Positions 1 through 18,547 of a DNA stretch of 31,802 nt are shown one piece after another. Below the pieces are notes generated by a model. It did not search any database. It saw nothing but the letters and a program-made list of their open reading frames with translations, and was not told where the DNA came from. The position numbers and the translations under genes were made by a program. Every line of letters begins with the position of its first letter. Position 1 is the stretch's first letter. The DNA lies in assembly GCA_965371675.1 (NCBI GenBank), contig CBDUZK010000001.1, forward strand, positions 1 through 31,802, in the 5' to 3' direction. The stretch comes from an uncultured bacterium. GTDB taxonomy: Bacteria > Hydrothermota > Tepidihabitantia > Tepidihabitantales > Tepidihabitantaceae.

Positions 1-3000
1 TCATCACCGACGGCGCTCCGAAGCCGCGGCCAGCGGACGAGAAGCTGCGAATGAAGGAATCGACTATGGCAGAGTTCACAATCGCGCACAGGTAGTGCGC
101 TTCAGTCCTGGAGGACGCTGCGATCATCGACGTGGTATCGGTTGCTATGAGAGTTTTCCGCCCGAACGGCGTCTGGGTGGATGACAGGACCGTGCCGACC
201 ATTCTTCCTGCCATGCGCTTCCAGACTGTCCTGTACGACGCGAACGTCCATTCTCCGATGTTATACTGCGAGTAGAATGGAGCCTTAGGCACATATGTAT
301 CCGGTCGCCCTTCATGTGGTACTTTGTCACAGTAGTACTTCCGAAAGGCGGCCCGACGAAGGAGAACCGGCTTGAACACAGCAAGATATGCAAGCGTAAG
401 AGGCGCCTCGACCTCCAGGACGCCGGGGTCGATACCCTTCCGAGCTGCGGGGTCCTGTATGACAAGTGTGTAGAAGTGGCCCTTGGTTCCGTACCGCATT
501 AGCTCGCCCCCACTGACAGTCGGGTACACGAACTTGGTTTCGATCGATGTCCTGAGTGGTTTGATGCGTGTCTTGCCTCGGTCGTGCATGTTCGAAACGA
601 CCAGCAGTTTGTCCGGGCGGACTTCACGTACCTTGAGCCAGAAAACCCCGTACGGTTCTATCCGGGCACCAACCCACGGGCGGTACTTATTCTCGCCTTT
701 GAGTGCAGATAGAATATCGAGGTGGGTCTGGGTAGCGGTCTGCCACGACGACTCAATCCGATGAGGGTCAACGGGGATAGCCTGAAGGCTGGTTCGGAGT
801 GTATTCTTCCGGACCGTACCGATATCCCAGCCTGGGCGCACATGACCGATACCCTTCCTCGTGCGCCATTCCAACACCGGCACAGGGTACGTGGTCTTGC
901 GTCCCTTCTGCATCACAAACAGGGACGTCTTGTTTGCGGCTCGGAACGGCTTGAGGTTGACCATGTCCTCCATTCTCAGGACTTTGAGTGGGATACGTTT
1001 GTGTTTGATTTCGAATCCGCGGAAGCCCTCGCCTGCGCCCTTGGACTTGAAAACCTCCATCGTGATCAGGAACCCCAGCTTGCCTTTGTCCTTGAGGTAG
1101 TTGTCGGCACAGACGTAAGTGAAGAGCATCGAGAAGTCCTTCTCGCCGGCTCCGAGTCGTGTCTCGTGTCCTTTGAGCGAGAAGAGGCCGTAGCGATGCC
1201 ACATTTTCAGCGTCTTCCTGCGGTAGTCATCCGACAAGTAGCCCCACCGTATCCACGGCGGGTTGCCGATGACGAAGTCGAACTTGCCGACGTAGACCGG
1301 CGCGAAAGCGTTCTTTATGTACCGCGCCCAGATGCCGTCTTCTCCAGCTTCATCGATCTTCTTGATGCGCTTATAGACATCCTCCAGCATATCGATGTCA
1401 GTGACCTCGAGTTTAAACTCGTTCGTCAGTCGAGTTCGGAAGGCCTCAAGCGACAAACGATGGCCGCCGCGCAGGGCCATGTCGACCATCGCTGTGAACT
1501 TGTCGATTTGCTCCCTGTCCTGCATCGTGATCGGGAACTGGAAGGTCTCCCGGGAGGTAGTAAACACCAGCCGGTCCTTGAACTCGATCTCTCCCTCGTC
1601 CTCGTATCTGGATGGAGCCCGCACCGAGTCGCACAGGTAGACAGGCAGCGATATCGGCCGGACGTAGGGGATGAACCGGGCGAACGCCACCAGGTAGTTG
1701 GTCCGTGATGCCAGGACCGCCAGTGGGTTGAGGTCGAAACCGACGATATCCTCAAGCACCCGTCGTCCGTGCGATGCCGGATCAAGCTTGCCCTTCTTGC
1801 CGGCGGTATCAATGGCCCGGTGGATAGCCTGAACGAGAAATGTCCCCGAGCCACAGGCCGGGTCCAGGAAACGCGTCCCCGGCTTCCCTTTGTAGCCGGT
1901 TCGGTCGATGAGGTAGCCGGCAAGCCAGTCCGGCGTGTAGTACTCGCCGAGGGCATGGCGCAATTCCTTGGGTACTATGTCCTCGTACAGGTTCTGGAGC
2001 AGGTCGCGCGTCCAAGCCGGCTCTAGAACGGGCGTGGCCGCTTCAAACCGTGCCAGGGCCTCGACGGTCGTCCTGACCGCCCCGATCAACCCGGGTGACC
2101 AGGCGTCCAGGTACCAGGAGAAAAAGTCCGCTTCCAGGAAATTGACGATACCTCGCTCGGCGAACTCGGCTCCGCTTTCCATCTGGGACAGCTTTACTCG
2201 GAGTTCCTTGTCATTGACCGCTCCAAGGTCCGAGACAAAGGACTCCACCGAGCTACCTTGCTGTAGTGAAACCAACTCAACCGCAATCAATTTCATCAGG
2301 AGCGCGTAGTAAGTGTGGATAGCGAACAGCAGTTGCTTCAACCGTACGCCACCGGGCATCTCGTACAGCTCGGCGGTCTGAGCCGCAGCTGCCTGAGCTC
2401 TTGCCAGTTCCTGCCCGTAGACTACACCGAAGATACGGTCCCACTCCTTGAAGAACGTCCTGGTTCGGGATGCTGACTGCTGACGCTGAGCCTTCATAAC
2501 CGCAGTGTAGAGCTCGGCTACCATCCGACAGGCCACATCGTGGGGAGGGGCGAAGACTGCGGCCAGGTTCTGAGCTGTGAGAGGTCGCCGCTCGGACGCG
2601 CGGAAGAGCACGAGCAAGTTCGCGATACTGTACGCTGAGATCGGATACGGGCCGAGTATCTGGAATCCGCGTCGGACTTTGACCTCCGGGAACAACTCCT
2701 CTGCCGCCTGCTTACTGGGAACCGGAAGCTGCAGTAGGGTAGCGGTTTTGCTGAACCGAAGGAACAGGATGTTCTGTCCGTCCGTGGCAATGCCGACCGC
2801 CTTCTCCAGATAGTCTTCACGCATGCCTCCGTACTTCTTGGCGTCCGCTGTCAGGTACTTCTGGAGCTGCTGATTGACCTTGGCGACTTCGGCCTTGCTC
2901 TTCAAGCGTCCGGGTTTTTTGTACTCAATGGTGATGAAGCCGTAGACGCTGTCCCGGCGGCCACCGAAGGTCGTGGATGATTTCTCGTAGCGGACGCCAC

Positions 3001-3139
3001 TGACGTCCAGCCCCATCTGCTTCAAGGCGGCCTGCAGGATTGGCTCGAACGCCATCTTCAGATCCTCTTCAGTTATCGCCCGTCCCGCAGCCTTGAGAAT
3101 GGCCTTGGCGATACGGGCTGTGTCAGCTTCTGTTCCCAT
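1..3139 (-). CDS. Type IIG fused restriction endonuclease / N6-adenine methyltransferase (Eco57I/BseRI-like), 3' end truncated by window edge
   Basis: Hand translation of the minus strand from ATG at 3139 stays open to base 1 (>1046 aa). N-terminal PD-(D/E)xK-like 'RDSVYGFITIEYKKPG', motif X 'LGEYYTPDWLA', motif I 'FLDPACGSGTFL', motif IV 'FDFVIGNPPW', and a C-terminal TRD-like region. Absent from the ORF track because there is no stop in the window. Confidence 0.9.
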   Translation of the reverse strand, partial: MGTEADTARIAKAILKAAGRAITEEDLKMAFEPILQAALKQMGLDVSGVRYEKSSTTFGGRRDSVYGFITIEYKKPGRLKSKAEVAKVNQQLQKYLTADAKKYGGMREDYLEKAVGIATDGQNILFLRFSKTATLLQLPVPSKQAAEELFPEVKVRRGFQILGPYPISAYSIANLLVLFRASERRPLTAQNLAAVFAPPHDVACRMVAELYTAVMKAQRQQSASRTRTFFKEWDRIFGVVYGQELARAQAAAAQTAELYEMPGGVRLKQLLFAIHTYYALLMKLIAVELVSLQQGSSVESFVSDLGAVNDKELRVKLSQMESGAEFAERGIVNFLEADFFSWYLDAWSPGLIGAVRTTVEALARFEAATPVLEPAWTRDLLQNLYEDIVPKELRHALGEYYTPDWLAGYLIDRTGYKGKPGTRFLDPACGSGTFLVQAIHRAIDTAGKKGKLDPASHGRRVLEDIVGFDLNPLAVLASRTNYLVAFARFIPYVRPISLPVYLCDSVRAPSRYEDEGEIEFKDRLVFTTSRETFQFPITMQDREQIDKFTAMVDMALRGGHRLSLEAFRTRLTNEFKLEVTDIDMLEDVYKRIKKIDEAGEDGIWARYIKNAFAPVYVGKFDFVIGNPPWIRWGYLSDDYRRKTLKMWHRYGLFSLKGHETRLGAGEKDFSMLFTYVCADNYLKDKGKLGFLITMEVFKSKGAGEGFRGFEIKHKRIPLKVLRMEDMVNLKPFRAANKTSLFVMQKGRKTTYPVPVLEWRTRKGIGHVRPGWDIGTVRKNTLRTSLQAIPVDPHRIESSWQTATQTHLDILSALKGENKYRPWVGARIEPYGVFWLKVREVRPDKLLVVSNMHDRGKTRIKPLRTSIETKFVYPTVSGGELMRYGTKGHFYTLVIQDPAARKGIDPGVLEVEAPLTLAYLAVFKPVLLRRAAFRKYYCDKVPHEGRPDTYVPKAPFYSQYNIGEWTFASYRTVWKRMAGRMVGTVLSSTQTPFGRKTLIATDTTSMIAASSRTEAHYLCAIVNSAIVDSFIRSFSSAGRGFGAPSVM

Positions 3140-3148
3140 ATGCCAGCC

Positions 3149-3176
3149 AGCATATGCCCGTAGCTTCTACAGTCAA
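3149..3176 (-). promoter_or_regulatory. sigma70-like promoter of the RM gene
   Basis: Minus strand TTGACT-N16-TATGCT, 9 nt before ATG 3139; no SD. Confidence 0.6.
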
Positions 3177-3566
3177 GAGCGAACCGTTGAACATACGTAA
3201 GCTTCGTCATGGCAACCGGCTGGCGCACTTGTAGATTCATGAGCGTCGGAACTTCGGGCATGGGCCAAAACGAGGGTCGTTGCGGCGGCTGTGGTGAGGG
3301 TTCTTGCGGCGACCTGCTCGGTTGGTTTGAGCAGCGTCGCGGCGGCAGGACGGATGTCATCCATGAAGAGCGACACGCTGGCCGGCATGGGGTGGAAGGC
3401 GGCCCCCGGAGTGGTACAGGGGACGGCTGTGATGACCATGTCGTAGCAGGAAGCGACTTATTGCCAGGCATGCGGTGGTCATGTTGCGTTTTCGGTTCCA
3501 ATTCCCTGTGATTCCTGGCTGCGATAGTGCCGAATCCCCGCTGCTACCCCCACTCCCTACTGCATT

Positions 3567-3782
3567 CCCGGGGCGGCTCCGGTAGCGGCCCCCCTAGCCG
3601 CTGGGGGGATGGCTACCCCAATAACTACCCTAGCCGCTAGGGTAACGGCCAGGGTAGCCGCCAGGGTAACGGCCAGGGTAGCCACTGGGGTAGCGGTCAG
3701 GGTAGCCGCTCCCCTAGCCGCTGGGGGGACGGCCCCGGGGGCGGTTGGGGGGATAGCCCGGGGATACCCCCGGGGAGAGCCC
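3567..3782. repeat. Degenerate 12-bp-period minisatellite, ~18 units
   Basis: Units stay in phase, e.g. AGGGTAACGGCC, AGGGTAGCCGCC, AGGGTAGCCACT, GGGGTAGCGGTC, CCCCTAGCCGCT. Exact 19-bp repeat CCCCTAGCCGCTGGGGGGA at 3591-3609 and 3711-3729. Confidence 0.85.
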
Positions 3783-4002
3783 CCACGCTGAATTGTCAAC
3801 CCAGATAACACATTGGTTTGCCGGGCGTTAGCGGAAATGACCCGTCAGTTTATTTGTTTCATAGTGTTGATAGTCAATAAAGTGAACTATTCGGGCCGTA
3901 GGCGTAAGTGCTTGTTCCGAATTGCGAGTTGCGGATTCCGAATGGCGAATACTGCCCGGTACTCTTGGTGTCTACCCTGGGCTGCCCGACCCCGGAAACC
4001 CC

Positions 4003-4034
4003 TTGCCTTTATGCCAGCTTTACTGTAATATAAT
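4003..4034 (+). promoter_or_regulatory. Promoter for the MerR-like/VIT-vWA operon (leaderless)
   Basis: TATAAT at 4029-4034, 6 nt before ATG 4041. TTGCCT at 4003-4008 gives a 20-nt spacer, or 17 nt to the alternative -10 TAATAT at 4026-4031. Confidence 0.65.
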
Positions 4035-4040
4035 ACTGTC

Positions 4041-4475
4041 ATGAAAGAGCTACAAAAGTTCGGCCTCGATGAGGTGTGCGCGCTGACCGGGTTCCCGAAA
4101 CGGACGGTCCGGTATTACATCCAGCTCGGGCTGGTGGACCGGCCGGAGGGGTCGAAGCGGGGCGCGTATTACACCGGGTGTCACCTGGAACAGTTGCTCG
4201 CGGTGAAGACGTGGCAGCGTTCCGGGTTGTCGCTCGAACGGATTCGGGAGCTTCTGGGCAGCGAGGATGCCGCACTGGCGGTCCCGGCCAAAGGCCGCGG
4301 CGCGGGCACGGTCGAGGTCTGGAGCCACATGGTGCTGGGTGACGGGTTGGAGTTGCACGTCGAGCCCGGGCAGGCCGAGCTGAACCCGAAGCAGTTGCGC
4401 GCGCTCGCCCGGGGAGTCCGCGAGTTGATGGACGGCATCCGGTCGGCGGACCCGGAGCGCGGAAAGGAAAGCTGA
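4041..4475 (+). CDS. MerR-family helix-turn-helix protein
   Basis: 'FGLDEVCALTGFPKRTVRYYIQLGLVDRPEG..RGAYY..HLEQL' is a MerR-type wHTH. TGATG overlap with the next gene. Confidence 0.85.
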   Translation: MKELQKFGLDEVCALTGFPKRTVRYYIQLGLVDRPEGSKRGAYYTGCHLEQLLAVKTWQRSGLSLERIRELLGSEDAALAVPAKGRGAGTVEVWSHMVLGDGLELHVEPGQAELNPKQLRALARGVRELMDGIRSADPERGKES

Positions 4476-6706
4476 TGATAGGTTCACATTTGTCGGCGCC
4501 GGAGTTGAGGGTGCGAGGACAGGCCCGGGTCGTGCTGCAGGGCGTGGAGGTGGAAGCCAGGCTGCAGGACCTGGTATCCGAGGTGGAGATATGTCAGACG
4601 TACCGGAACCTAGAGCAGAGGAACATCGAAGCGGTGTATACGTTCGCGCTGCCGCTGGACGCGGTCCTGCTTGAACTGGTGGTGCACCTGGGCGAGCGGA
4701 AGCTCCGGGGGCACGTGGTCGAGAAGACCGAGGCCGAGGAGCGGTACGAGAATGCAATCACCGACGGCGACTCGGTTGTCATGCTCGAACGGGCGGCGGA
4801 CGGGGTCTACACGATGAACGTCGGCAACCTGATGGCGGGCGAGACCGCGCGGGTCCGGTTCCGTTACGCGTTGCTCCAGCAATGGCAGGACGACACGCTG
4901 CGGTTTCTCCTGCCGACCGTGATTGCCCCACGTTACGGAAGCGCCGCGCGGGCCGGGCTGGCGCCGCACCAGGAACCGGACACGGACACGACCGGTGACG
5001 TGGAGAACCGGTTTCGGCTCCGGGTCAAGGTGACAGGCCTGCTGCGGCAGGCGGAGTTTGACTGCCCGACCCACCGGGTTACGACCGAACGCGGGGAGGA
5101 ATCGACCGTGATATCCCTCGCCGACGGGTCCGCGGTCATGGACCGGGATTTCGTCCTGAATTTCCGGCTCGACCAGGCGGGAAGCGCGAGCGCAACCGTG
5201 AGCCGGGACCGGGACGGGTACGTCGCCCTTGCGTCATTCAACCCGCGTTTCCCGGTGAGGATGGACGACGCGCCCCGCAGCCTGAAGGTGGTAATCGATT
5301 GTTCCGGGTCGATGATGGGGGACTCGATTGGCCAGGCGCGCAGAGCATTTATGCGGATTCTGGATTCGCTCCGGCCGCAGGACTGTTTCAACATCGTGGT
5401 GTTCGGAAGCACGGCGCGGGCGCTGTTCCCAACGGGCAGGGAAGCGACCGGCCCGAATTTGATCCGCGCGCGCAAGTTCGCGCGCCAGATGGACGCGGAT
5501 ATGGGCGGGACCGAAATCGCACCGGCATTGAACCTGGCGTACCGGCTGACGATGCCGGCAGGAAAACCTCGCGGGGACGTACTGCTGATAACGGATGGAG
5601 AGTTCTGGAACGACGCGGTCGTAACCGAGGACGCTCGCGCATCGGGTCACCGGGTATTCACGGTCGGGGTCGGGAGCGCGGTGGCCGAAGCCGGGCTGCG
5701 CGAACTGGCCGACGCGACCGGGGGCGCGTGCGAGCTGGTGGCGCCAACCGAGGAGATGGCCGGGCACGTGTACCGGCATTTCCAGCGCATCTACCTCCCG
5801 CGTGCCGAACGGGTGAGCCTGAGCTGGCCAGCCGAGCCGGAGGAAGTGGAGTCGAGGCGATTGAACGCGGTCTTCTCCGGGGACACGGTGCACGTGTTCG
5901 CGCGGTTCCGCGAGCGGCCGGAGGGTACTGTCACACTGCGGGCCGAACTCACGGGCGGCAGGCGGGTAGAGCTGGCCACGGACATCCGCGCGCTGGAAAG
6001 CGGCGAAGCGGATGCCGGGCTTTCGACCCTGGCCCGGCTCGGGGCCGCGGCGAAGTTGCGCGGGTTGACCGCACGGCTCATCGACAACGGGGAACCGGAG
6101 GAACATGAGGACGTCCGGGCGCGGGCGGTCGAGCTTGCGACCGCGTACCAGTTGGTGAGTGAAGTGTCGAACTACCTGGTGCTGCACGTCCGGGCCGACG
6201 ATGAAAAGGCGGTGGACCTGCCCGACCTGCGCAAAGTGCGGCAGACCGTTGCCGCGGGCTGGCACGGGCTGGGGAGCGTGGCGATGGGGGCACCGGTAGC
6301 CTATTCCACCCGACGGAAGGCGAAGTTGATGTCGGTGGAGTACGGCATGGTGCTCCACGACGCACAACCGATGTTCCTGCGCAGAAACCTCGGCATAGAG
6401 AACCGCTTCATGTTCGCGTTGAACCAGTGCATTCCATCTGCGTCCGAACGCCTGCCGGTGACGTCCCTGCGTGACCTGGAAACGATGGGCCTGTCCGGTG
6501 AGTGGCTGTCCGCCCTACGGGCCCTGGTGGAAGTGGATGGCGAGGACGAGTACATGGTGGTCGTTGCCCTGCTCAAGGCCCTGGTCGACATGGACTCGGA
6601 AAAAGAGCTGTCCCTGAGGTTGAAACGGATGATTCGCAAGGCGTACAAGGAAGCGGGTGTTCCTCGCAAGCTACGGCACGCCGTCGGGCGGATTGTCACG
6701 CCGTGA
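4475..6706 (+). CDS. VIT + von Willebrand factor A domain protein
   Basis: N-terminal VIT-like region ('NIEAVYTFALPLDAVL...AEERYENAITDG'). Intact MIDAS residues: 'VIDCSGSM' (DxSxS), 'GGTE' (T), 'LITDG' (D). Confidence 0.9.
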   Translation: MIGSHLSAPELRVRGQARVVLQGVEVEARLQDLVSEVEICQTYRNLEQRNIEAVYTFALPLDAVLLELVVHLGERKLRGHVVEKTEAEERYENAITDGDSVVMLERAADGVYTMNVGNLMAGETARVRFRYALLQQWQDDTLRFLLPTVIAPRYGSAARAGLAPHQEPDTDTTGDVENRFRLRVKVTGLLRQAEFDCPTHRVTTERGEESTVISLADGSAVMDRDFVLNFRLDQAGSASATVSRDRDGYVALASFNPRFPVRMDDAPRSLKVVIDCSGSMMGDSIGQARRAFMRILDSLRPQDCFNIVVFGSTARALFPTGREATGPNLIRARKFARQMDADMGGTEIAPALNLAYRLTMPAGKPRGDVLLITDGEFWNDAVVTEDARASGHRVFTVGVGSAVAEAGLRELADATGGACELVAPTEEMAGHVYRHFQRIYLPRAERVSLSWPAEPEEVESRRLNAVFSGDTVHVFARFRERPEGTVTLRAELTGGRRVELATDIRALESGEADAGLSTLARLGAAAKLRGLTARLIDNGEPEEHEDVRARAVELATAYQLVSEVSNYLVLHVRADDEKAVDLPDLRKVRQTVAAGWHGLGSVAMGAPVAYSTRRKAKLMSVEYGMVLHDAQPMFLRRNLGIENRFMFALNQCIPSASERLPVTSLRDLETMGLSGEWLSALRALVEVDGEDEYMVVVALLKALVDMDSEKELSLRLKRMIRKAYKEAGVPRKLRHAVGRIVTP

Positions 6707-6824
6707 AAGGAAACGGCTTGCGGGCGCGCCGGCGGAAGTCGCGACTGCTGGAGTCTGCCTGACAGGTAGCACAGGCCGGTAGCGATCTACAACCTGACCG
6801 CCGTAAAGCCCGTAAGCAGAGAAC

Positions 6825-6852
6825 TTGCACTTGTTCCGCTATTGCGTATAAT
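6825..6852 (+). promoter_or_regulatory. Promoter of the TA operon
   Basis: TTGCAC-N16-TATAAT, 10 nt before ATG 6863. It overlaps the track's TTG start at 6842, which argues against that start. Confidence 0.7.
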
Positions 6853-6862
6853 TGTTCCTGAT

Positions 6863-7411
6863 ATGAGAACAGAAGCCCGTGAGGCGTCCCCTGCCCGGGT
6901 GTTGTTCGGCGAGACGCGGCGCAGGATTCTGGACCTGCTCTTCAGGCGGGTTGACGAGGAGTTTCACCTGCGGGACCTGGCACGCACCGCAGGTGTGAGT
7001 CCGGGCGCAGCGCACCGTGAACTGAGCCTGCTGAAGTCTGCCGGGTTCGTGGCGCGTCGGAAGCAGGGACACCAGGTGTATTTCCGCGCGAACCGGGAAT
7101 CGCCGGTATTCTCTGAACTGAAAAGACTGCTTGCAAAGATCTCCGCTGTCCCGACCGGCCGGCCCCCGGATTCCGTGCTGCGCCTGCTGTGGGACGTTGA
7201 CCGGTCGAAGGTCGATATCCGGCAGCATCAGCGGTTCCTGATTGCACGGGTCCTGGACTACGGGGACCCGGAAACGGTGCGCTGGCTGCGACGGACGTAC
7301 GGCGACGAAGCGCTGCTGGAAGTGGTGGATTCCGGCGCCGCGCTCTCCCCTCGAACCGCGGGTTTCTGGCGCGCGCTTCTGCGCCCGGGCCGGACCGGCC
7401 ATGCATCCTGA
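6863..7411 (+). CDS. wHTH (ArsR/MarR-like) fused to a DUF6922-like domain; putative antitoxin/autoregulator
   Basis: N-terminus 'LFGETRRRILDLL..EEFHLRDLARTAGVSPGAAHRELSLL..GFV' is a wHTH. C-terminus 'LLWDVD..DIRQHQRFLIARVLDYGD...WLRRTYG...LSPRTAGFW' matches the small partner typically found with AbiEii-like toxins. Confidence 0.75.
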   Translation: MRTEAREASPARVLFGETRRRILDLLFRRVDEEFHLRDLARTAGVSPGAAHRELSLLKSAGFVARRKQGHQVYFRANRESPVFSELKRLLAKISAVPTGRPPDSVLRLLWDVDRSKVDIRQHQRFLIARVLDYGDPETVRWLRRTYGDEALLEVVDSGAALSPRTAGFWRALLRPGRTGHAS

Positions 7412-8051
7412 AGTCATAAGCCGGGCCGGACGCGAGCTGGTCGAGGTCCTGCCCGAAGAGCTGTTCGAGCGTAAGTTCCACCTCGCCGGCGGTACGGGCC
7501 TCGCGTTCCAGCTTGGACACCGGCGGTCGGGTAGTTTTGACTTCTTCTGCCTTCACCGGTTCGACGTGCCCGGATTGGCCCGACTGCTCGGGTCCCTGCC
7601 CGGATACGCCGAGGTCGCGACGAGCCGCGATACGCTGCACTGCCGGGTGGGCGATGTGAAGCTGTCGTTCATCCACTACCCGGTGGAACTCTGTTACACA
7701 CCGCTGGTCTTCGGCCGCATACCGGTCGCGGACTGGCGGGACATCCTGGCCGAGAAGCTGAAGACCGTGTCTCAGCGCGGCAGCCGCAAGGACTTCTATG
7801 ATATCCACGCGTGCTGCACGTTGCACGGAACGTCACCGCGCGAAGCGGTGGAGTTTCTGCGCGCGCGGTTCCACGACACCGGGCTGAACCTGTACCACGT
7901 CGCCCGGAGCCTGGCCTGGTTCGGGGACGCGGACGCCGAGCCGGACCCGGTGTTGCTGAACCCGACCGACTGGAACAGGGTGAAGGCGTTCTTCATCGAG
8001 CACCTGCCCCAATTCGAGGCTGCGCTGCTCGGCGAGGTATCCGGGGACTGA
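7401..8051 (+). CDS. AbiEii/AbiGii-family nucleotidyltransferase toxin (DxD motif altered)
   Basis: 'FHLAGGTGLAFQLGHRRSGSFDFF', 'ILAEKLKTVSQRGSRKDFYDI', 'SLAWFGDADAEPDP'. ATG 7401 overlaps the upstream stop by 11 nt. Confidence 0.85.
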   Translation: MHPEVISRAGRELVEVLPEELFERKFHLAGGTGLAFQLGHRRSGSFDFFCLHRFDVPGLARLLGSLPGYAEVATSRDTLHCRVGDVKLSFIHYPVELCYTPLVFGRIPVADWRDILAEKLKTVSQRGSRKDFYDIHACCTLHGTSPREAVEFLRARFHDTGLNLYHVARSLAWFGDADAEPDPVLLNPTDWNRVKAFFIEHLPQFEAALLGEVSGD

Positions 8052-8073
8052 TATCTGCCTGCTGCCCGCCTGC

Positions 8074-8101
8074 TTGACACCCGGGATCCTTGCACTATCT
8101 T
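8074..8101 (+). promoter_or_regulatory. sigma70-like promoter upstream of the uORF/Zn-ribbon gene
   Basis: TTGACA-N16-TATCTT, 5 nt before ATG 8107. Confidence 0.6.
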
Positions 8102-8106
8102 GCCGC

Positions 8107-8160
8107 ATGAGCAGGATGACTGAGATCCAGTCCGTACCGGCGCTGACGGAGCCTACCTGA
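8107..8160 (+). other. Putative 17-codon leaderless uORF (MSRMTEIQSVPALTEPT)
   Basis: Starts at the expected TSS; its TGA overlaps the ATG of 8160 (TGATG). Confidence 0.35.
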
Positions 8161-8438
8161 TGGGTGGGATGGTCCGGTATCAATGCCCGAAGTGCGGGTA
8201 TGAAATCAACGCGTTGGCTGGTGCGGGAATGATGGGCATTGAGTACGACTGGTTCGTGTGCCACGAGTGCGCGGAGCTGTGTAACGTAGAGGTGTACGAC
8301 CACATCCGCGAGCGGAAAATCCTGCCACGGTGCTCGGAATCGAAGAGCCACCACATCGAGAAATGGTCCGCACCCGGTCCGTGCCCGAAGTGCGGGGCTA
8401 CCATCGAGGAAGGCGAGGGTTTCGGATGCTGGGACTGA
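8160..8438 (+). CDS. Small Cys-rich zinc-ribbon protein
   Basis: CPKC, CHEC and CPKC knuckles, ends in WD; 92 aa. Confidence 0.75.
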   Translation: MGGMVRYQCPKCGYEINALAGAGMMGIEYDWFVCHECAELCNVEVYDHIRERKILPRCSESKSHHIEKWSAPGPCPKCGATIEEGEGFGCWD

Positions 8439-8460: not shown

Positions 8461-8586
8461 ATGATCTGGATTATCTACGGCCCGGTGATACTGGTTGTCG
8501 TGGTCGCGATTGCGGCCGGCGTCTCAATCGTAATCCGCAAGCTGCGCGGCAAGGACGACAACCCGTACATCGACAGCGACGAGTGA
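8461..8586 (+). CDS. 41-aa single-pass membrane peptide (not in ORF track)
   Basis: MIWIIYGPVILVVVVAIAAGVSIVIRKLRGKDDNPYIDSDE*: hydrophobic helix, then a positive-inside RKLR and an acidic tail. Confidence 0.65.
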   Translation: MIWIIYGPVILVVVVAIAAGVSIVIRKLRGKDDNPYIDSDE

Positions 8587-8587
8587 G
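8550..8587 (+). repeat. 38-bp direct repeat, copy 1
   Basis: CAAGGACGACAACCCGTACATCGACAGCGACGAGTGAG; 37/38 identical to 9782-9819. Confidence 0.95.
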
Positions 8588-8640: not shown

Positions 8641-9543
8641 CTAGTCGGTAGCCGGCGTGCCGGGAGGAGCCAACACGTAGCTCCGGTATTCCCAGGCCCC
8701 GGTGCGGAATGCTTCATAGGTCGCCGTTCCCTCGGTCGCCGCGAACTGGCAGAACAGCGGCCGGAGCAGGACGGGCACGCGTCGCCGGACCAGGGCGAGC
8801 TTGCGCCCGCTGTCCTGCGCCAGCGCGGCAGAGACGTTGTGCGTGATTGAGCGTTCGGACACAATCCGGAACCCGCCCCGGACGAGCTGGTCGCGCAGGA
8901 CACCGGTGAGGCCGCGGCTGCGGAAGTCGGCGAACAGGAAAAGCCCGCCCGGCCGCAGGACCCGGCGGACTTCGCCCAGAAAGGAAGACATCGAACCGTA
9001 GCAGTGGGACGATTCCACGTTGACCACCGCGTCGAACGAGCCGGCCGCGAACGGCAGGGACTCGCTGTCTCCGCGCCGGAACCGGAGCCCGGGCATCCGG
9101 TGGTTGCGCCGGCAGAATGCAACCGCGCCCGGGTCGAGGTCGAGCCCGGTGACCGTACGCGGCCCGTGGCACCGGGCGATATACGACGCCCCGCCGCCCC
9201 TGCCGCACCCGATTTCGAGCACATCGCGGCCGGTAAGGTCCATCGCCCCGGCAACGTGATGGTAGAGCTGGATGCCGAGCCGGTCCGGCTCGTCCGCCGC
9301 GCTCAGGACCGGCGCTGCCGGGTCACCGGCAGCGAGGGCATAGCCGTAGTTGGTGTAGGTGACTTCACCCGCCCGGTCGAGACGGGCGAGGCGTCGGTAC
9401 AGGGCCCGGTAGGCCACGCGCCGCAGGATGGGGAACACGCGGAAGACCGTTTCGGTCGCGCCCATGAACGGGACCCGTTCGGCGACGCGATGCGCCCATC
9501 CGGACCGGACATACCTAGCCGTCGAAGCGCCATTCGCAGACAT
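8641..9543 (-). CDS. Class I SAM-dependent methyltransferase
   Basis: 'YTNYGY', 'LGIQLYHHVA', 'DVLEIGCGRGGG', 'GDSESLPF', 'VVNVESSHCY', 'EVRRVLRPGG'. Resembles the lipid/fatty-acid O-methyltransferase subfamily. Confidence 0.85.
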   Translation of the reverse strand: MSANGASTARYVRSGWAHRVAERVPFMGATETVFRVFPILRRVAYRALYRRLARLDRAGEVTYTNYGYALAAGDPAAPVLSAADEPDRLGIQLYHHVAGAMDLTGRDVLEIGCGRGGGASYIARCHGPRTVTGLDLDPGAVAFCRRNHRMPGLRFRRGDSESLPFAAGSFDAVVNVESSHCYGSMSSFLGEVRRVLRPGGLFLFADFRSRGLTGVLRDQLVRGGFRIVSERSITHNVSAALAQDSGRKLALVRRRVPVLLRPLFCQFAATEGTATYEAFRTGAWEYRSYVLAPPGTPATD

Positions 9544-9580: not shown

Positions 9581-9618
9581 TCGCCGAGGAAGGCCCCGAA
9601 ACCCGACATGGGAATCTC

Positions 9619-9759
9619 AACACAGAGACACCAGGAACACCAAGCGGCAGACCAGAAGCCGAGAAGCGTTGTCGCCCGGCATGTGCGGTATCGCCTTGAC
9701 CGAGGAGGCGGCGCAAGGCTTCGTAACCCCCGGCTTCTCACCTTCGTGTCTTTGTGGTT
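9619..9759. repeat. Imperfect inverted-repeat-bounded (REP/MITE-like) segment
   Basis: AACACAGAGACACCAGG (9619-9635) versus the reverse complement of CCTTCGTGTCTTTGTGGTT (9741-9759); core 10/11 identical. Confidence 0.4.
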
Positions 9760-9781
9760 CCGTTCCGGTTCTTGGGGAGGA

Positions 9782-13306: not shown

Positions 13307-13699
13307 GTGTTGAAGAGTTCGCTGTTCATTTTCCTGGCGTCCATGCTGGTGGCCGGCTTCGTGGCTTGCCCCGGACCGGAGCAGGTGGCGGAGAAGCCAC
13401 CCGTGCCGGCTGAAGAGAAGCCGATGACCGAAGAACAGAAGATGCAGTTCGTGATGGAGAACTGCGTCTGCAAGAACTGCCCGAGTTGGACCCCGGCCTG
13501 TGACGAGCAAGGTATATGGGGCGGCTTCTGCGCAATCGGGAAGACCGAGTGCATCACCAAGGAGCAGGGCTGTATCTGCCCCGAGTGCCCGGTCACGAAG
13601 AAGATGGGTCTGAAGTGGGGCTACTACTGCACCCGCGGCTCCGCCGAAGACATGATGAAGAAGGAAATGGAGAAGAAAGAGGGGGAAACGGGCGGATAG
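13307..13699 (+). CDS. Lipoprotein carrying a 10-Cys DUF2769-like domain
   Basis: Signal peptide plus lipobox FVA-C, a Pro/Glu linker, then CxCxxCPSW..C..GFC..GK..CI..GCICxxCPV..YYCxxG. Start set by SD spacing (13307 or 13310). Confidence 0.8.
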   Translation: MLKSSLFIFLASMLVAGFVACPGPEQVAEKPPVPAEEKPMTEEQKMQFVMENCVCKNCPSWTPACDEQGIWGGFCAIGKTECITKEQGCICPECPVTKKMGLKWGYYCTRGSAEDMMKKEMEKKEGETGG

Positions 13700-15968: not shown

Positions 15969-16229
15969 CTAGCCTCCGCTTGCCTGGTTCTGCTCCATCT
16001 CCGAACCGTCGGTGCAGAAGTAGATGTTCTTCAGTTCGAGTTTTTTAGTAACCGGGCAGCCGCCGCAGATACAGCCGTTCTGCTCGGTGATGCACTTCGA
16101 CTTGCCGATGGACGGGAAGCAGTAGCCGCCATCCTCACCGCACTCCTGCCACGACGGACAGTCGGGGCAGACGCACATCGCCAGCACCATCTTCTTTTTC
16201 TCTTCCATCTCCTGAGGGTTCATTTCCAC
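15969..16229 (-). CDS. DUF2769-like 10-Cys protein (copy B)
   Basis: Same Cys pattern as the other two copies. GTG 16229 gives MEMNPQEMEEKKKMVL, matching copy C. Confidence 0.85.
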   Translation of the reverse strand: MEMNPQEMEEKKKMVLAMCVCPDCPSWQECGEDGGYCFPSIGKSKCITEQNGCICGGCPVTKKLELKNIYFCTDGSEMEQNQASGG

Positions 16230-18295: not shown

Positions 18296-18547
18296 CTACA
18301 TTCCTGACTGCTCTTTCTCGGAACCCTTCGTGCAGTAGTAGGTGTGCTTCAGCTCCATCTTGGCGTACACGGGACAGCCGCCGCAGATACAGCCCTTCTC
18401 CTCGGTAATGCATTTGCTCTTTCCAATCATCGGGAAGCAGAATCCGCCCTGCTCGTCGCATTCGACCCAGCTCGGGCAGTTCTTGCATATGCACATCGAA
18501 AGGACCATCTTCTTCTTCTCTTCCATCTCCTGAGGGGTCATCTCCAT
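18296..18547 (-). CDS. DUF2769-like 10-Cys protein (copy C)
   Basis: 10-Cys pattern; SD GGAGG upstream. Confidence 0.85.
   Translation of the reverse strand: MEMTPQEMEEKKKMVLSMCICKNCPSWVECDEQGGFCFPMIGKSKCITEEKGCICGGCPVYAKMELKHTYYCTKGSEKEQSGM

Follow-up and report, generated by a model that had tools for sequence, protein, structure and literature searches.

The only experimental lead on a protein that may resemble those considered here concerns LT3126 of Limnobacter thiooxidans CS-K2, a 708-aa cytoplasmic VIT-VWA protein with a conserved metal ion-dependent adhesion site (MIDAS) and a sporadic distribution (bioRxiv 10.64898/2026.05.23.727404). Its basal expression is very low; gamma rays raise its RNA 22-fold and its protein 30-fold, heat and H2O2 induce it 2-4-fold, the helicase LT3115 is co-induced with it, and five-fold overexpression of its mRNA increases survival at 500 Gy by ~200-fold (bioRxiv 10.64898/2026.05.23.727404). 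The preprint mentions no regulator, MerR partner or FtsZ-like motif for LT3126. Here, we describe a two-gene cassette encoding a MerR-like regulator and a VIT-vWA protein, located at positions 4003-6706 of a 31,802-nt stretch of DNA (hereafter, the window; GenBank assembly GCA_965371675.1, contig CBDUZK010000001.1) from an uncultured bacterium of the family Tepidihabitantaceae (Hydrothermota). The window is an entire contig of a metagenome-assembled genome (2.6 Mb in 443 contigs, 91% complete), and the nearest cassette-bearing relative carries the label candidate division WOR-3. The cassette is one copy of a widespread, horizontally mobile and self-contained unit for which, apart from the 2026 Limnobacter preprint, no description was found in the literature searched, so that it can be regarded as largely uncharacterized.

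The first gene of the cassette (4041-4475, plus strand) encodes a 144-aa MerR-like protein (PF13411, E = 4e-15, 56 bits against a cut-off of 21.6), whereas the second (4475-6706, plus strand) encodes a cytoplasmic VIT-vWA protein of 743 aa (VIT PF08487, E = 5e-24; VWA, E = 2e-14). The stop codon of the first gene shares 1 nt with the start codon of the second (TGATG), and a purine-rich stretch precedes this junction. This arrangement is conserved: a full-length MerR-like homologue, 45-58% identical, lies beside the VIT-vWA gene in 77 of 80 species-representative loci from many phyla. In 72 loci, this homologue immediately precedes the VIT-vWA gene in the same orientation, and in five it immediately follows it; three loci, including one at a contig edge, lack it. 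Where both genes were called, the paired open reading frames (ORFs) overlap by 1-11 nt or stand 2-3 nt apart. The reversed order, with the VIT-vWA gene first, is found in Competibacteraceae (loci L048, L066, L067, L076 and L077). No third gene is conserved, the commonest neighbour family besides the MerR-like one being present in 8 of the 80 loci when all neighbouring ORFs were clustered.

More than 3,700 homologues of the VIT-vWA protein, typically 41-55% identical over 95-99% of its length, were detected in Desulfobacterota, Alpha-, Beta- and Gammaproteobacteria, Spirochaetia, Rhodothermales, Acidobacteria, Bipolaricaulota and other groups. About 400 species-level genomes carry the cassette, but its distribution closer to the window is sparse: of 40 relatives in the same order, 2 have it, as does 1 of 200 other genomes of the phylum (completeness of at least 85%). 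Orthologues are borne by plasmids of Massilia sp. H6 and Aquabacterium olei, and no match to the cassette was found in 50,697 phage records. Besides these two, the cultured carriers include Desulfosarcina variabilis Montpellier and Microbulbifer sp. TYP-18. The cassette is thus accessory and horizontally mobile.

The VIT-vWA protein consists of a VIT domain (PF08487, aa 21-131) and a vWA domain (PF00092 and PF13768, aa 272-419), followed by a beta/helical region that extends to about aa 596, a linker and a C-terminal domain. The MIDAS is complete, and its five residues (D275, S277, S279, T346 and D374; nt 5297-5311 encode the DCSGS stretch) are invariant in 33 aligned homologues. The protein has neither a signal peptide nor a membrane segment: its N-terminus is polar, and the peak of the 19-residue Kyte-Doolittle hydropathy (1.69) falls inside a confidently modelled beta strand. 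In the full-length AlphaFold2 model, with a predicted local distance difference test score (pLDDT) of 83, an ITIH1-like body up to residue ~596 is followed by a disordered linker and a helical end. The top Foldseek match is ITIH1 (6fpy, E = 8.7e-34 over 620 columns), whereas profile comparisons place the VIT-vWA region of the vault protein PARP4 (residues 608-1199, E = 1.7e-63) nearest among solved structures, with a further match to ITIH4 (E = 4e-40). The linker (aa 597-642; 6263-6400, plus strand) has a pLDDT below 50 and is variable and gapped in the alignment. Behind it, conservation resumes over the last ~100 residues in the 33-member alignment, which correspond to a family-specific domain of six helices (aa 641-743; 6395-6703, plus strand) that was modelled on its own with a pLDDT of 92.

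The C-terminal domain had no fold match in the PDB (best Foldseek E = 1.9, TM-score below 0.35) and matched no Pfam family, and a Death-like bundle or other known fold was accordingly dropped. A profile of this domain retrieved 447 representatives among 1.84 billion proteins; the best 145 of these were nearly all full-length members of the family or metagenomic fragments, so that its use in other architectures, which we had sought, was not borne out by these matches. An earlier note on this DNA, made from the sequence without database searches, had described a translationally coupled MerR-type helix-turn-helix (HTH) and VIT-vWA pair, an intact MIDAS and the lack of a signal peptide, all of which hold. 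Its description of the ~140-aa C-terminus as unique was mistaken, because thousands of homologues share it over the full length. The genome contains a second VIT-vWA gene (contig C35; locus L083:1333-3714), the product of which (793 aa, 26% identical) has a clear signal peptide; it has no MerR neighbour and is of the exported type, unlike the cytoplasmic cassette protein.

Upstream regions of cassettes from different phyla align without gaps when anchored at the start codon of the first gene, revealing a conserved order of elements: a -35 element close to TTGACA, a 13-bp palindrome (ACAGT-N3-ACTGT), a -10 element, a third half-site, ACTGT(C), and the ATG. A loosened version of the palindrome is present in 52 of 69 homologous loci compared to 1% of random 83-nt background windows, and it starts exactly 27 nt ahead of the start codon in 36 of the 69. 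In most loci, it is located between the -35 and -10 elements. A TAnnnT hexamer that would serve as the -10 element lies 5-9 nt ahead of the start codon in 40 of the 69 loci, predicting a leaderless or near-leaderless mRNA; the Geobacteraceae copies differ in having a leader with a GGAGG site. In the window, the promoter and operator region (4003-4040, plus strand; start codon at 4041) comprises the -35 element TTGCCT (4003-4008), a degenerate left half-site CCAGC (4014-4018), the right half-site ACTGT (4022-4026), the -10 region (4026-4034) and the third half-site ACTGT (4035-4039). In the copy from another genome of the same genus (G001), the operator sites are perfect.

A regulon search in the window genome returned one exact palindrome elsewhere, within a gene on contig C57, which is about the chance expectation. 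A LexA/SOS box was considered for the same sites and rejected, given that the half-sites run ACAGT...ACTGT with a 3-nt gap rather than CTGT-N8-ACAG. The MerR-like protein itself consists of an N-terminal winged HTH, a short helix, a Pro-rich break and a conserved, subfamily-specific C-terminal segment with the consensus VEVWSH...GVEL.IEP, which appears strand-like rather than coil-like from its sequence; no Cys is conserved in the family. From the layout of these sites, the cassette is probably autoregulated by repression.

FtsA, ZipA, SepF, MinC, ZapD and ClpX dock onto the C-terminal peptide of FtsZ, the consensus of which is D-[IL]-P-x-F-L-R-[KR]. A look-alike of this peptide is present in the linker of the window protein (aa 628-640; 6356-6394, plus strand; HDAQPMFLRRNLG). 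The FtsZ of the same genome, encoded on contig C138 next to ftsA (PF14450, E = 2e-32), ends in DLEIPAFLRKNLD, so that PMFLRRNL in the linker corresponds to PAFLRKNL in the FtsZ tail. A strict pattern, P-x-F-[LCM]-[RK]-[RKSQN], was detected near the end of the protein, in its tail region, in 18 of 120 homologues; their first 560 residues never contain it. A slightly looser pattern was found in 14 of the 80 species loci. The motif occupies a constant position in the alignment, immediately ahead of the C-terminal domain, and falls within a segment predicted to be disordered, as is the case for docking peptides. Such motifs are also seen in two of the Competibacteraceae with reversed gene order (L067 and L077).

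The look-alike tracks the FtsZ of its own genome, as became apparent when the window genome and ten further motif-bearing genomes were compared. In a member of the Geobacteraceae (L016), the linker contains a 15-mer identical to the FtsZ tail, EDQYDIPTFLRKSVD. In Sedimenticola (L025), the FtsZ tail DLEYLDIPAFLRSQ is paralleled by DLEYLDIPVFLKSS in the linker; in Microbulbifer (L051), FLRQQ is paralleled by FLRQE, and in Desulfosarcina (L003), FLRRKAD by FSRRKMA. When the anchoring Pro and Phe were excluded, the linkers matched the FtsZ tail of their own genome at a mean of 5.5 of 16 positions, compared to 3.5 of 16 across genomes, and the observed sum was not attained in any of 100,000 permutations (p < 1e-5). 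In the Geobacteraceae pair, all 15 residues are the same although 10 of the 45 nucleotides differ, all necessarily at synonymous positions, which makes selection on the peptide a more likely explanation than recent gene conversion. That a linker predicted to be disordered should contain a copy of the FtsZ tail strongly hints that the scaffold may engage a partner that binds this tail.

Taken together, these features can be read as those of an autoregulated accessory stress cassette, the large product of which would act in the cytoplasm as an adaptor dependent on its MIDAS and would display, in a sizeable part of the family at least, the window copy among them, a mimic of the FtsZ tail of the host. 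We favour this reading tentatively, at a little less than an even chance. The MerR-like protein would bind the ACAGT-N3-ACTGT site between the -35 and -10 elements, as well as the half-site at the transcription start, and would control, probably repress, its own near-leaderless operon. Stress, whether DNA damage, heat or oxidative, would relieve the repression, allowing accumulation of the large protein, a putative non-enzymatic binding scaffold with an ITIH/PARP4-like VIT-vWA body and an intact MIDAS. The FtsZ-tail mimic would then engage the proteins that normally bind the tail, FtsA in this genome, and the MIDAS face would bind a further partner. The outcome might be that division is modulated or paused, or that the scaffold is placed at the division site.

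Several observations weigh against this interpretation. A recognizable FtsZ-tail motif is found in only ~15-25% of the family members and hence cannot account for the whole function of the family. The motif of the window protein is degenerate, including its acidic/Ile part, and matches the FtsZ tail of its own genome at 4 of the 16 non-anchor positions. The operator of the window is imperfect as well: its left half-site deviates at two positions, and its -35 element is weak. Automated calls of the -35 and -10 elements across the loci are mixed, with spacers of 15-20 bp and a mode of 17, in keeping with either repression or MerR-style activation. Overexpression of LT3126 caused no growth defect (bioRxiv 10.64898/2026.05.23.727404), which argues against a strong division block. 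The relationship to LT3126 is also a putative one. With the Aquabacterium protein as query, we found a Limnobacter sp. VIT-vWA protein, the gene for which overlaps an upstream MerR-like gene; however, this protein has 781 aa compared to 708 in LT3126, and is 33% identical to that of the window over aa 20-638 of the latter, with no alignable C-terminal domain. Finally, toxin-antitoxin (TA), defence, restriction-modification (RM), mobile or conflict genes surround the cassette in about 7 of the 10 genomic contexts that were inspected gene by gene, which would fit a conflict role too.

A bolder reading would make the cassette a new kind of mobile checkpoint: under stress or infection, a large MIDAS scaffold mimicking the FtsZ tail of the current host would compete for tethers of the FtsA type and pause division, and the mimic would re-adapt to the FtsZ of the host after each transfer. 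We consider this reading conceivable, if unlikely.

Among the alternatives, the one that survives best is a damage-response scaffold with no connection to division. The protein would assemble repair or quality-control complexes, in the manner of the vWA domains of Ku and TFIIH p44 or the VIT-vWA of PARP4, with the FtsZ-like peptide being a degron or a lineage-specific addition. In favour of this reading are the behaviour of LT3126, namely, its induction by radiation, heat and H2O2 and the survival gain without a growth defect (bioRxiv 10.64898/2026.05.23.727404), and the lack of the FtsZ-like motif in most family members. The locus of the Limnobacter sp. protein (L118:8755-13786) also looks like a DNA-damage tolerance cluster, judging from its gene content. 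It includes a divergent SRAP gene, an SprT-like gene on the downstream side at a distance of 29 nt, with T5orf172 and transposases beyond it, and, 4.5-6.5 kb upstream, Peptidase_S24 and Y-family polymerase genes (umuDC-like). Furthermore, a Desulfobulbaceae copy has, within 4.5 kb, both a WYL regulator and a helicase of 1129 aa (RNase H-like and superfamily-1 helicase) with the domain layout of LT3115. WYL regulators are found near five of the loci and SRAP near another; like NERD/UvrD helicases (four loci) and ARPP-1 (three loci), however, they recur only sporadically. The Limnobacter and helicase links favour a damage or stress role, if only circumstantially.

These repair neighbours are not conserved, however. 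SprT and UmuDC homologues are absent from the 80 species loci, from six other homologous loci and from the window, and a search with the LT3115-like helicase as query did not find it in the 91%-complete window genome. LT3126 is only possibly related to the cassette protein, and a peptide without a function would hardly be expected to track, lineage by lineage, the FtsZ tail of its own genome. We therefore regard a scaffold unconnected with division as unlikely. The three ARPP-1 loci are unrelated to each other: the ARPP-1 gene is directly upstream of the MerR-like gene in L115 (6504-7511) and L116 (6483-7484), where a DUF4258 gene is also found, and ~1.3 kb downstream of the VIT-vWA gene in L081 (6486-7397).

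The earlier note had proposed that the pair, placed among anti-phage genes, is an uncharacterized defence or conflict module. In this scenario, the vWA domain with its MIDAS would sense a phage protein, the MerR-like protein would keep the operon off, and an output, for example a division block via the mimic, would stop the infection, as in abortive infection. In favour of this reading are several of the surroundings of the cassette. In the window, its neighbours are a Type IIG RM gene on one side and a PDC-M05A/AbiEii pair on the other. The plasmid copy of Aquabacterium adjoins a DNA methyltransferase, a different AbiEii pair, an integron integrase and IS3, and that of Massilia adjoins insertion sequence (IS) elements, Imm74 and a restriction endonuclease. 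In one Spirochaetia genome, the neighbours are ParE/RHH, Uma2, HicB and Fic; another copy resides in a region resembling a mobile element (DUF932, ParB and UvrD), and two more in what appear to be 'conflict' islands (ARPP-1, DUF4258, WYL, helicases, HipA, PIN/MazE, Mrr and SNF2). Cas1 is encoded within 4 kb of the cassette in the Competibacteraceae locus L048 and in two further sampled loci. The remaining contexts are two with plainly housekeeping neighbours and a mixed one, with transport and metabolic genes upstream, and Uma2 and an AAA_15/AAA_21 ATPase downstream.

The distribution of the cassette is also very patchy and its divergence high: in the same-genus genome G001, the regulator is 58% and the N-terminus of the VIT-vWA protein 44% identical to those of the window, compared to 70% for the neighbouring AbiEii and 61% for its partner. 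Moreover, a small DNA-binding protein encoded first and tight autoregulation are a layout typical of defence and TA operons.

Nevertheless, although the pair is a genuine self-contained module that tends to reside in conflict-rich neighbourhoods, several observations speak against a defence role. The VIT-vWA protein matched none of the families of PADLOC-DB v2, candidate systems included, and the sole match of the MerR-like protein was a trivial 19-bit HTH hit to mad1. No defence gene is a conserved partner across the 80 loci, and the cassette proteins contain no recognizable effector enzyme. In a PADLOC tally, 139 ORFs within 4 kb of the pair matched 405 models and 133 ORFs at 6-10 kb matched 317, so that, by this crude comparison of two distance classes, matches to defence models were no more frequent near the pair than farther away. 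The tally lists the 25 commonest families; the top items listed are Cas1 (3 proteins), Cas12f/TnpB-like (2) and Csx1 (2) for the proximal ORFs, and mad3, generic SMC-type ATPase models, Csm3/Csm5 and pAgo for the distal ones. The proximal Pfam tally is dominated by ordinary families of metabolism, transport and signalling. In Spirochaetia, four loci have an aldose epimerase gene adjoining the cassette, and such partial conservation of the flanks would be expected of a stably inherited gene. Together with the housekeeping contexts, the lack of matches among phage records and the indication from LT3126, the sole experimental lead, of protection against radiation and stress, these results make an anti-phage function quite unlikely. 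The ten contexts suggest that the cassette tends toward accessory, conflict-rich DNA without any particular defence gene travelling along, and no phage-protection experiment on it was found in the literature searched. A defence role remains unproven and is less likely than a role in stress or division.

The weakest alternative, a TA-like addiction module in which the VIT-vWA protein inhibits growth or division and the MerR-like protein is the transcriptional, possibly direct, antidote, would accord with the two translationally coupled, autoregulated genes, the small DNA-binding protein encoded first, the plasmid-borne copies, the patchy distribution and the potential toxicity of FtsZ-tail mimicry, but it is very improbable, given that a non-enzymatic scaffold of 740 aa is unlike known toxins, that Limnobacter tolerated a five-fold overexpression of the LT3126 mRNA without toxicity (bioRxiv 10.64898/2026.05.23.727404) and that the gene order is reversed in Competibacteraceae.

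The genes that flank the cassette in the window are real defence-type genes, yet independent neighbours. The Type IIG RM gene (2-3139, minus strand; PADLOC REase_MTase_IIG, E = 7.7e-241; Pfam Eco57I and N6_Mtase) was correctly recognized in the earlier note and encodes an endonuclease and a gamma-class N6-adenine methyltransferase fused in a single polypeptide. Its 3' end is lost at the contig end, with positions 14-1013 of the 1100-position profile covered; nt 1-55 of the window recur without a mismatch at the end of another contig of the same genome (C194:1-55), on which the gene probably continues. Its GC content (0.58) and GC content at third codon positions (GC3, 0.73) are below those of the rest of the window, whereas the GC3 of the cassette (0.82-0.86) is similar to that of core genes (0.80-0.85). 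No DNA match to the RM gene was found in four genomes of the same genus, all of which match a methyltransferase gene at 8641-9543 of the window. Given the core-like composition of the cassette and the visibly foreign one of the RM gene, their co-location looks like shared residence in an accessory patch.

Between the two lies a dispersed repeat with a G/C-run (3538-3898), outside the cassette. More than 12 copies, 75-86% identical, are present on other contigs of the genome, many of them a few hundred bases from contig ends, and copies also occur in the same-genus genomes G003 and G004; this repeat probably breaks the assembly. A second dispersed repeat (9590-9780) has ~15 copies of 75-96% identity on other contigs, and the window contains internal DNA repeats of ~70% identity (13463-13632 compared to 18330-18493 and 16003-16109).

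Downstream of the cassette, and outside it, are the genes for an ArsR-like HTH protein with a DUF6922 domain (6842-7411, plus strand; DUF6922, E = 2e-15; PADLOC candidate PDC-M05A, E = 6e-26) and an AbiEii-family nucleotidyltransferase (7401-8051, plus strand; PF08843, E = 3.8e-14), which overlap by 11 nt. The AbiEii half of what the earlier note had called an AbiEii-like TA pair is thus sound; its upstream partner, in contrast, matched no AbiEi family in Pfam and PADLOC profile searches. The HTH-DUF6922 protein is the probable antitoxin or regulator of the adjacent AbiEii gene. The HTH-DUF6922 gene had been mis-called by the gene caller, which is approximate at high-GC loci. Among the searched loci, the pair recurs only in the same-genus genome G001, where the cassette and the HTH-DUF6922/AbiEii pair are on short contigs (C352 and C334, of 1.7 and 1.9 kb) and may be adjacent as well. 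At ~70% nucleotide identity and with fragmented assemblies, same-genus synteny is too poor to set the borders of the island. Next follow a small Cys-rich ORF with a promoter-like site of its own (8160-8438, plus strand), also outside the cassette, and, directly after it, an ORF for a single-pass membrane peptide of 41 aa (8461-8587). The former had been taken for a Zn-ribbon protein; it does have four CxxC motifs, but all its Pfam matches, which are to zinc-ribbon families, are below the cut-off.

If the stress-adaptor reading is correct, the cassette proteins would be the first bacterial family known to us to mimic the FtsZ docking peptide, and the cassette would represent a widespread, horizontally traded coupling of stress to cell division or to docking at the divisome. 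It would also account for the radioprotection conferred by the Limnobacter protein and provide the regulator and operator still missing for that protein. More generally, the locus carries a caution for the mining of defence islands, in that being flanked by RM and AbiE genes does not by itself make a conserved accessory pair a defence system.

The cassette can be compared with several known systems. LT3126 resembles the window protein in being a cytoplasmic VIT-vWA protein with a conserved MIDAS and a sporadic distribution, and its very low basal expression and strong stress induction are of the kind proposed for the cassette. Closer to defence, vWA-MoxR systems and TerY-phosphatase-kinase triads have in common with the cassette a vWA domain with MIDAS as presumed protein sensor and a patchy, island-prone distribution; however, these systems include an AAA+ MoxR ATPase, a kinase or a phosphatase, whereas no such third gene is conserved beside the pair and MoxR-type ATPases do not figure among the commonest Pfam families of the neighbouring genes. 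The regulator has the PF13411 winged HTH in common with MerR, CueR, SoxR and HspR, as well as the operator dyad between the -35 and -10 elements. It differs in that a Pro-rich stretch followed by a conserved segment, apparently strand-like, takes the place that the long dimerization coil has in canonical MerR proteins, the metal-binding Cys residues are absent, and the spacer as called automatically is most often 17 bp instead of the canonical 19-20 bp. The regulator also scores far below the cut-off of every MerR equivalog model and is co-transcribed with its target rather than divergent from it.

With regard to the proposed action on the divisome, the proposed tight repression and stress induction recall SulA, YneA, SidA and DidA, but this parallel is functional only. 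The latter are small proteins or peptides that act on FtsZ polymerization or on the late divisome, and none is a VIT-vWA scaffold; to our knowledge, no damage-inducible division inhibitor mimics the C-terminal peptide of FtsZ. Among VIT-vWA proteins, the exported family TIGR03788 (marine proteobacterial sortase target) has a homologous body (match over aa 25-597, E = 1e-76); the cassette protein scores far below the cut-off (258.6 against 551.65 bits) and has neither the signal peptide nor the sorting signal. Of the eukaryotic members, PARP4 has a catalytic region that the cassette protein lacks, and ITIH proteins are secreted and covalently linked, unlike the cassette protein, which in turn is distinguished from all of them by its own linker, its six-helix C-terminal domain and its MerR-like gene partner. 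What PARP4, ITIH1, ITIH4 and VWA5A share with it is the succession of VIT, vWA and a trailing beta/helical region, together with a complete MIDAS. PARP4 and VWA5A, moreover, are intracellular, as is the cassette protein, which, should our interpretation hold, would provide a bacterial model for these two poorly understood proteins.

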